The notes under the pieces: model-generated
Seen by the model: only the letters and a program-made list of their open reading frames with translations
Databases searched by the model: none
Told to the model about the DNA's origin: nothing
Shown: one piece after another, positions 1 through 639 of the stretch
Layout: every line of letters begins with the position of its first letter
Position numbering within the stretch: position 1 is the stretch's first letter
Program-made: the position numbers and the translations under genes
Source of the DNA: Escherichia coli
GTDB lineage: Bacteria > Pseudomonadota > Gammaproteobacteria > Enterobacterales > Enterobacteriaceae
DNA: 639 bases
Assembly: GCF_003334385.1 (NCBI RefSeq)
Contig: NZ_QOWN01000156.1
Reading direction: 5' to 3' (one strand)

Positions 1-150
1 GATTATCAGCCAGGATTCGTCAAAGTCCGGGATATAACGGCGGTTCTCCGGCAGGAAAAACTCCCTCGCCAGTATCACACTGTGTTCCTTCAGTAACGCC
101 TGCAGACCATACTCCAGATAGCGATTCCTGGTAGCCAGAATCACCTTCAT
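1..150 (-). CDS. Hypothetical protein, N-terminal 50 codons only. 3'-partial; the gene continues beyond the window's left edge.
   Basis: ATG at 150..148 (minus), preceded by an AGGAAGG Shine-Dalgarno at 7-nt spacing. The frame is open for all 50 codons to position 1: MKVILATRNRYLEYGLQALLKEHSVILAREFFLPENRRYIPDFDESWLII... It is absent from the ORF track, presumably because it has no in-window stop. I do not recognise the family from this fragment. Confidence 0.45.
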   Translation of the reverse strand, partial: MKVILATRNRYLEYGLQALLKEHSVILAREFFLPENRRYIPDFDESWLII

Positions 151-157
151 CGCAGCA

Positions 158-164
158 CCTTCCT
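158..164 (-). promoter_or_regulatory. Shine-Dalgarno / ribosome-binding site for the downstream minus-strand gene
   Basis: Minus-strand AGGAAGG (plus 158..164), then a 7-nt spacer (UGCUGCG), then ATG at 150..148. Confidence 0.5.
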
Positions 165-187
165 GTTTTTTATGCCCCATGAAAAAC
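165..187. repeat. AT-rich near-perfect inverted repeat (10-nt arms, CCC centre)
   Basis: Plus strand 165..174 gttttttatg and 178..187 catgaaaaac are reverse complements except for one T/G position. It lies between the terminator stem and the downstream gene's Shine-Dalgarno, and its right arm is the terminator T-tract. Confidence 0.4.
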
Positions 188-214
188 GGCAGACCAGAGT
201 CCTGCGCCTGCCGT
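181..214 (-). terminator. Putative Rho-independent terminator of the adhesin gene
   Basis: Minus-strand RNA reads CGGCAGGC-(11-nt loop GCAGGACUCUG)-GUCUGCCG followed by UUUUUC. This is an 8-bp GC-rich stem with one G.U wobble (plus-strand arms 187..194 and 206..213) and a T-tract at 186..181, about 25 nt downstream of the TAA stop. On the plus strand the same stem would have an A-C mismatch and no trailing U-tract, so it is directional for the minus strand. Confidence 0.55.
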
Positions 215-238
215 CATACTTCATGTCACCTTCAGCAA

Positions 239-639
239 TTAAAACTCGAAGTTCACACCAACATTCCAGGAGGCATCGCCATCACTGAATGCCACGCCTG
301 CTTTCGCTGCGGTCTGCTCGTTGAAGCGGTAACCCACACCCACTGCCAGTGCCTGCTGGTCGCTGTAACCACCAACCGCTGCCGTGGCGTTGAATTTACC
401 CACACTGTACGGCTGGAACAGACCTGTCAGGGCCGCAGACTGTGCTGCTGCTCGTTTCATTTCCTTATGGTTTTCATTAATCTGGCGCTGCTGGCTGTCC
501 AGACGTGCTGAATGTTGCTGCAGCGTACGGGTATTGGCTGCAATCGCCTTGCTGTTTTTCTCAATGGATTGCGTGTTACGGGTGACACGGCCATCAATGG
601 CACCAACTGCTGCATCAATACGGTCAGTACGACCAGACA
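239..639 (-). CDS. Trimeric autotransporter adhesin (YadA/Eib-like), C-terminal part: coiled-coil stalk plus beta-barrel membrane anchor. 5'-partial; the gene continues beyond the window's right edge.
   Basis: Minus-strand frame with first full codon at 637..635 is open from the window edge to TAA at 241..239. Translation: [132 protein letters not shown]. The last ~65 residues ([22 protein letters not shown]...WNVGVNFEF) have the Gly/Ala-rich alternating pattern and terminal aromatic (Phe) typical of the YadA-type anchor. The upstream ~60 residues show a strict heptad with hydrophobic a (I/V/L/M) and polar d (N/N/N/H/Q/N) positions. The ATG at 460..458 that starts the 73-aa track ORF is in this same frame and is an internal Met. 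Confidence 0.85.

Follow-up and report, generated by a model that had tools for sequence, protein, structure and literature searches.

The window, meaning here the entire 639-nt stretch of Escherichia coli DNA that was analysed, covers the eib/orf-156 junction of lambdoid prophages of the P-EibC/D/A type, and its coding capacity is confined to the minus strand. The adhesin gene in it is eib, whose product is an immunoglobulin-binding trimeric autotransporter carried in RefSeq under the name 'YadA C-terminal domain-containing protein'. Its sequence matches a chromosomal prophage region of E. coli SCU-104, and of related strains, at 100% identity; the figure is 99.7% for phage PhiR5_2 and 97.8% for the eibC and eibD loci that prophages P-EibC and P-EibD carry in E. 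coli ECOR-9. As a whole it was found in 42 E. coli genomes, at 112 places. In P-EibA and SCU-104 the genes J and lom, the tail-fibre genes, eib, orf-156, orf-60 and eaa lie on one strand throughout, and the block from eib to eaa has the same orientation as the phage late operon. The features of the window, by position, are as follows.

1..150, minus strand: 5' part of orf-156, the gene running off the window; ATG at 150..148; annotated as ORF-156C/D/A/E or as 'hypothetical protein'.
158..164, minus strand: Shine-Dalgarno-like AGGAAGG, 7 nt upstream of the orf-156 start; read from the sequence, with a presumed placement relative to the ATG at 150.
181..186, minus strand: U-tract, five U (186..182) and then C; U186 is shared with the basal A-U pair of the stem.
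186..194, minus strand: 3' arm of the putative terminator stem, GTCTGCCGT (also written GUCUGCCGU), with the U193·G207 wobble.
195..205, minus strand: loop segment of 11 nt, GCAGGACTCTG (also written GCAGGACUCUG); variable in sequence among homologues, where it has 8-12 nt.
206..214, minus strand: 5' arm of the putative terminator stem, ACGGCAGGC; its core GGCAGG is invariant in 16 of 16 intergenic variants.
215..238, minus strand: spacer of 24 nt from the stop codon to the hairpin (UUGCUGAAGGUGACAUGAAGUAUG); a few point differences among homologues, otherwise well conserved.
239..241, minus strand: TAA stop codon of eib, preceded by ...GTGAACTTCGAGTTT; the CDS ends in GenBank and RefSeq map to 239.
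242..639, minus strand: 3' part of eib, the gene running off the window; a YadA-type C-terminal anchor whose translation ends ...WNVGVNFEF.

The first-pass annotation of this DNA had proposed that an intrinsic terminator acting in one direction follows the adhesin gene, built from the arms CGGCAGGC and GUCUGCCG and the tail UUUUUC of the minus-strand transcript and set about 25 nt past the stop codon. Arms and tail were all found where it had placed them, and the distance is 24 nt by sequence. Positions 214..206 pair with 194..186 to give a G+C-rich stem of nine pairs, closed at its base by an A-U pair and including one G·U pair; past the 3' arm the minus strand continues with TTTTC (185..181) and then ATG (180..178). 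A worry attached to the proposal, that the 11-nt loop might block stable folding, proved unfounded. The loop does not stay open in the ViennaRNA fold. Instead, CAG (204..202) and CUG (197..195) come together in three inner pairs, with only a 1-nt bulge and a GACU tetraloop unpaired, and because these extra pairs close the loop and the hairpin is stable, the weak folding that would have spoken against a terminator is not observed. The hairpin has an energy of -16.9 kcal/mol over 27 nt and -18.7 kcal/mol over 34 nt. The free-energy calculation that had been suggested as a check bears the proposal out, the latter value standing against a mean of -8.0 kcal/mol (sd 2.0) for shuffles of the 34-nt segment (z = -5.3); none of the 200 shuffles folded as well. 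The hairpin is retained in a fold of its 301-nt context, in the minimum free energy structure and the centroid alike. In free RNA the spacer segment CAUGAAG (225..219) is able to pair with the U-run and CAUG at 184..178.

The site was also found by a simple terminator scan, on the minus strand. A discriminant combining hairpin and T-tail was then applied, of the type said to go back to d'Aubenton Carafa et al. in 1990. It gave d = +14.1 for the site on the minus strand and -12.7 for the best plus-strand site in the window, values for which a shuffle control is the safer reference, since the formula was used with modern energies and its zero point is approximate. In 150 dinucleotide-preserving shuffles of the whole window, searched on both strands, no site reached d >= 0 (0 of 150), and the maximum was -1.0. 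The terminator-type score that the first-pass annotation had named as a second check is thus positive, on the minus strand only. The directionality claimed there also holds, as the plus-strand RNA has a less stable fold (-14.4 kcal/mol) interrupted by an interior mismatch, carries the tail UCAUACUUCAUG without a U-tract and has a discriminant below zero. A bidirectional terminator was considered and rejected given this plus-strand tail and the negative d, which is found in the window and in all homologues. The element therefore displays the properties of an intrinsic terminator: a stable G+C-rich hairpin, a U-tract (UUUUUCAU) running from 186 downward, a discriminant above both threshold and chance, and a position 24 nt past the eib stop in sense orientation. 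A scan of the window against Rfam 15 (E <= 10) yielded nothing relevant, the sole match being CC0196 elsewhere in the window, whose 13 bits fall well short of the gathering score of 35 (E = 3.1).

The element is already known as a structure. The minus-strand interval 186..214 of the window coincides exactly with a 'stem_loop' feature of AF151674 (P-EibC) and AF151675 (P-EibD), and an equivalent 'stem_loop' lies past eibA in AF151091 (P-EibA) and past eibE in AF151676 (P-EibE). The stem-loop was marked by the depositors in GenBank in 2000, and it is an ordinary element of the standard terminator type. The eibA and eibE stem-loops share the stem of the window, whilst their loops differ and their T-runs are longer. 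The eibA version, whose pairs are all Watson-Crick and which has 8 U, is predicted to be the stronger terminator. The label in these records is 'stem_loop' only, with no function stated. Sandt & Hill 2000 is reportedly the original description of the eib locus; a search of the accessible literature found no mapped transcript 3' ends, Northern blots or in vitro termination assays from the locus, and the accessible Eib papers say nothing on terminators, promoters, operon structure or transcription units.

Homologous intergenic regions were collected from E. coli genomes with DNA identity as low as about 75%, from phage records and from IMG/VR contigs with an Eib C-terminus, and all comparative counts refer to distinct variants only, of which there are 16 for the intergenic region and 12 for the hairpin with its T-run. 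The GGCAGG/CCUGCC core together with a T-run of 5-8 is present in 16 of 16 intergenic variants. The least conserved part of the alignment is the stretch of about 30 nt that separates the T-run from the orf-156 ATG. A loose search by the adhesin stop context revealed no eib-type copy in the data set without the hairpin; its exceptions were a truncated contig (in which the hairpin is present), the distant locus L042 discussed below and one spurious match. The discriminant of the homologues ranges from +20 to +36 in the sense orientation and from -34 to -62 in antisense. The window variant, at d = 14, scores lowest in its family, and it is predicted to be the leakiest member because it has one G·U pair and only five U.

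Pairing is maintained across this family, 99% of cells being paired in the proposed register against 20-54% for slid registers. Two-sided compensatory covariation was looked for in the stem and none was found, seven of the nine pairs never varying, which also makes the shuffle control uninformative here. With seven of nine pairs invariant, counting pairs cannot by itself tell selection apart from recent shared ancestry. The single substitutions are more telling. A C>T change at position 8 of the 3' arm, which produces the G·U pair of the window itself, was seen on two loop backgrounds, and the other single stem changes are C>T at positions 2 and 9 of the 5' arm and A>G at position 1. In the minus-strand RNA each of these positions still pairs, as G·U, whereas the plus-strand RNA is left with a C·A mismatch. 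An exception is found in L012/L021, where basal pairs are lost and the T-run starts earlier. Depending on the count, the substitutions favouring the sense strand number 4-5 of 4-5, where half would be expected for neutral transitions (roughly p = 0.03-0.06). This strand asymmetry offers modest evidence that the sense RNA, and not a DNA palindrome, is under selection. More generally, when full covariation is lacking, stem changes that preserve G·U pairing on one strand only are an easy means of ascribing a palindrome to RNA-level and not DNA-level function.

A distant relative is found at L042:1873-1945 (IMGVR_UViG_2541047680_000009), where the adhesin C-terminus is 56% identical and an orf-156 homologue comes next. 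Its intergenic hairpin is unrelated (UCCCGGGGG-GAGU-CCCCCGGGA); it has about -30 kcal/mol in context and is followed by the tail AUAUAAUGAGG, without a U-tract. It may be that, at longer evolutionary range, conservation extends to a strong hairpin separating the genes and not to a canonical terminator.

Taken together, stability, score, position past the eib stop and retention at homologous loci support the earlier suggestion that the adhesin gene ends a transcription unit, and the element is very probably the Rho-independent (intrinsic) terminator of eib, an accessory ('moron') adhesin gene of lambdoid prophages. On this reading eib would be transcribed on the minus strand and the nascent RNA would fold into the 9-bp G+C-rich stem with its three inner pairs. 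The five U directly behind the stem would form a weak rU:dA hybrid whose disruption would release the transcript at about window 182..178. In the lysogen the main product would be a monocistronic eib mRNA with its 3' end protected by the hairpin, a minority of polymerases would leak through, and the co-oriented genes orf-156, orf-60 and eaa would be reached by read-through polymerases only. During lytic growth essentially all polymerases would be expected to read through, as Q-modified polymerase from the late promoter would ignore terminators. Such Q-driven read-through is plausible because the whole block is co-oriented with the late operon.

The element resembles canonical intrinsic terminators of E. 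coli in its G+C-rich hairpin with an immediate U-run, placed shortly past a stop codon and predicted to act in one orientation, and it differs from them in having a U-run at the short end (5 U, then C-A-U) and one G·U pair. Morons are defined as carrying their own promoter and terminator (PMC3594210, PMC8065619), which allows their expression while the prophage is repressed, and PMC8065619 counts eib among the virulence genes carried by phages. According to the same paper, Q enables polymerase to pass downstream terminators, and Eib protein and mRNA have been reported in wild-type strains (PMC4352079). In several respects eib conforms to the definition of a moron. It is an accessory gene in a prophage, lying between tail-fibre genes and the eaa autotransporter gene, and computation provides it with a terminator of its own. 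Base composition also sets it apart, with a GC content of 0.37-0.40 over the eib 5' end and the region upstream against 0.53-0.65 on either side, a dip that fits a horizontally acquired cassette. As for a promoter, a sigma-70-like TTGAGC-17-GATAAT (L004 9445..9417; 9 of 12 consensus positions) lies just upstream of the eib ATG, but it is no better than chance, the region having 5 promoter-like matches against 8.1 in shuffles.

The AT-rich region of about 680 bp upstream of eibC contains a second deposited stem_loop, at L001:4851-4879 on the minus strand, which consists of an AT-only palindrome (TAAATTTATAAAATTAATTTTTAAATTTA). A role in regulation or as part of the promoter region is more likely for it than termination, and any kinship with the hairpin described here was rejected, the two being unrelated.

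Comparison with the lambdoid morons HK97 gene 15, lambda lom and bor reveals a common plan, namely an accessory surface-protein gene in the late or tail-fibre region with AT-rich sequence upstream and a 3' terminator. The eib cassette departs from it in being directly trailed by the accessory genes orf-156, orf-60 and eaa, which have no evident promoter of their own. For orf-156 the caveat of the first-pass annotation, that the gene beginning at 150 is co-transcribed only by read-through, is apt. Its ATG at 150 lies about 30 nt behind the end of the U-run at 182, and no promoter-like site was found in the window. With the start this close and such a site absent, the sequence leaves no room for an orf-156 promoter between terminator and gene, and polymerases must arrive there either by read-through or after starting within eib. 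Its product, ORF-156, has 156 aa and is a constant downstream neighbour of the eib genes (full gene, L004:7680-8150). It matches PHROG 6585 (unknown function) and gave no match against Pfam.

The close attachment of orf-156 to eib underlies two other ways of regarding the hairpin. Attenuating hairpins occur inside operons after highly expressed surface-structure genes, as after papA in the pap fimbrial operon. The eib hairpin is similar in standing right past an abundant surface-protein gene, with co-oriented genes that are presumably needed less close behind; it differs in that a functional link between orf-156 and Eib is conjectural. It is unlikely, although conceivable, that the hairpin is a tuned, leaky intercistronic element which fixes the ratio of Eib to ORF-156, the latter being a partner of the adhesin in export, assembly or regulation. 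On that reading L042, which keeps the gene pair with an unrelated hairpin lacking a U-tract, would mean that the property conserved over long range is the formation or stabilisation of a transcript end and not termination as such. Less probable still is that the hairpin serves mainly as a stabiliser of mRNA 3' ends or a barrier to processing within a single eib-orf-156-orf-60-eaa operon, with most polymerases passing it. The upstream eib segment would then be shielded from 3' exonucleases after endonucleolytic cleavage, giving high eib and low orf-156 levels without real termination. Such a role would accommodate an orf-156 within 30 nt and without its own promoter, the short U-run of the window (5 U), and L042, at which the eib/orf-156 pair is kept with an unrelated, very stable hairpin. 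It is the absence of a U-tract at L042 that leaves a small probability both for stabilisation or processing and for a functional link between Eib and ORF-156. A pure stabiliser needs no U-tract, however, and 5-8 T stand directly behind the stem in 16 of 16 variants while neighbouring bases drift, with discriminant scores well above those of shuffles. Nor is stabilisation exclusive of termination; the two roles are compatible because a terminator hairpin also stabilises the 3' end.

It is very improbable that the hairpin is a regulated attenuator, switched by a competing fold, a leader peptide or a factor to control orf-156 and eaa. A 25-codon ORF (224..147, minus strand) does span the hairpin and end in an ATGA overlapping the orf-156 start, and an in-frame ATG lies at 180..178, directly past the U-run. 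Among homologues, however, the loop and the T-run differ in length by amounts that are not multiples of three, and because these differences shift its frame the small ORF is not conserved as coding sequence; a leader peptide encoded by it was accordingly rejected. Furthermore, no competing antiterminator pairing appears in the 301-nt fold, where the hairpin is present in both structures, and Rfam offers no riboswitch or leader family, the single match being at chance level and elsewhere. There is likewise little likelihood that the palindrome acts at the DNA level, whether as a dispersed element of the REP type, as a joint of phage-mosaic recombination or as a functionless chance palindrome. 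The variety of spacer and hairpin combinations does show recombination nearby, but stem substitutions that preserve pairing through G·U in the sense RNA only would not be favoured by a cruciform or by a palindrome bound by protein, and chance is excluded by the shuffles and by conservation beside variable flanks. Of 5,426 complete E. coli genomes just 34 contain the 36-nt hairpin segment, with a median of 3 places each, which closely tracks the eib window. A dispersed repeat of the REP/BIME type was rejected on this distribution, which follows eib loci.

As a terminator, the hairpin marks the 3' boundary of the eib transcription unit, and beyond correct annotation it is of little importance. 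The boundary is of use in designing eib expression constructs and in reading RNA-seq data from eib-positive E. coli, whether commensal or Shiga-toxin-producing. The terminator also leads to the prediction that orf-156, orf-60 and the eaa autotransporter gene would be expressed in lysogens mainly by way of read-through, and strongly only in prophage late transcription.

A number of smaller observations were made around the hairpin. Spacer variants (…GAAGGTGACATGAAGTATG, …GACAGTGACATGAAGCATG) are combined with different hairpin and loop variants, a mixing which indicates recombination breakpoints at or near the terminator, typical of phage mosaic joints. The ATG at 180..178 on the minus strand lies in frame, 10 codons upstream of the annotated orf-156 start; it is the start used in the phage GER2 record, and RefSeq uses the ATG at 150. 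On the plus strand, antisense to eib, a mechanically listed ORF of 110 codons (window 179-511) starts inside the terminator region and is unannotated in any record. Remoter relatives of orf-156 that are shorter at the N-terminus (L066-L078) have a different small gene upstream, with an unrelated terminator (CCGGAGCCCGGCTCCGG followed by TTTTTG) about 60-100 nt upstream of the start of the match, as at L067:620-650; their context is different, and they are uninformative on the eib hairpin. Between this terminator and the orf-156 relative lies a poly-G run, 7 to 10 long depending on the contig, which could be a phase-variable tract or a sequencing artefact.
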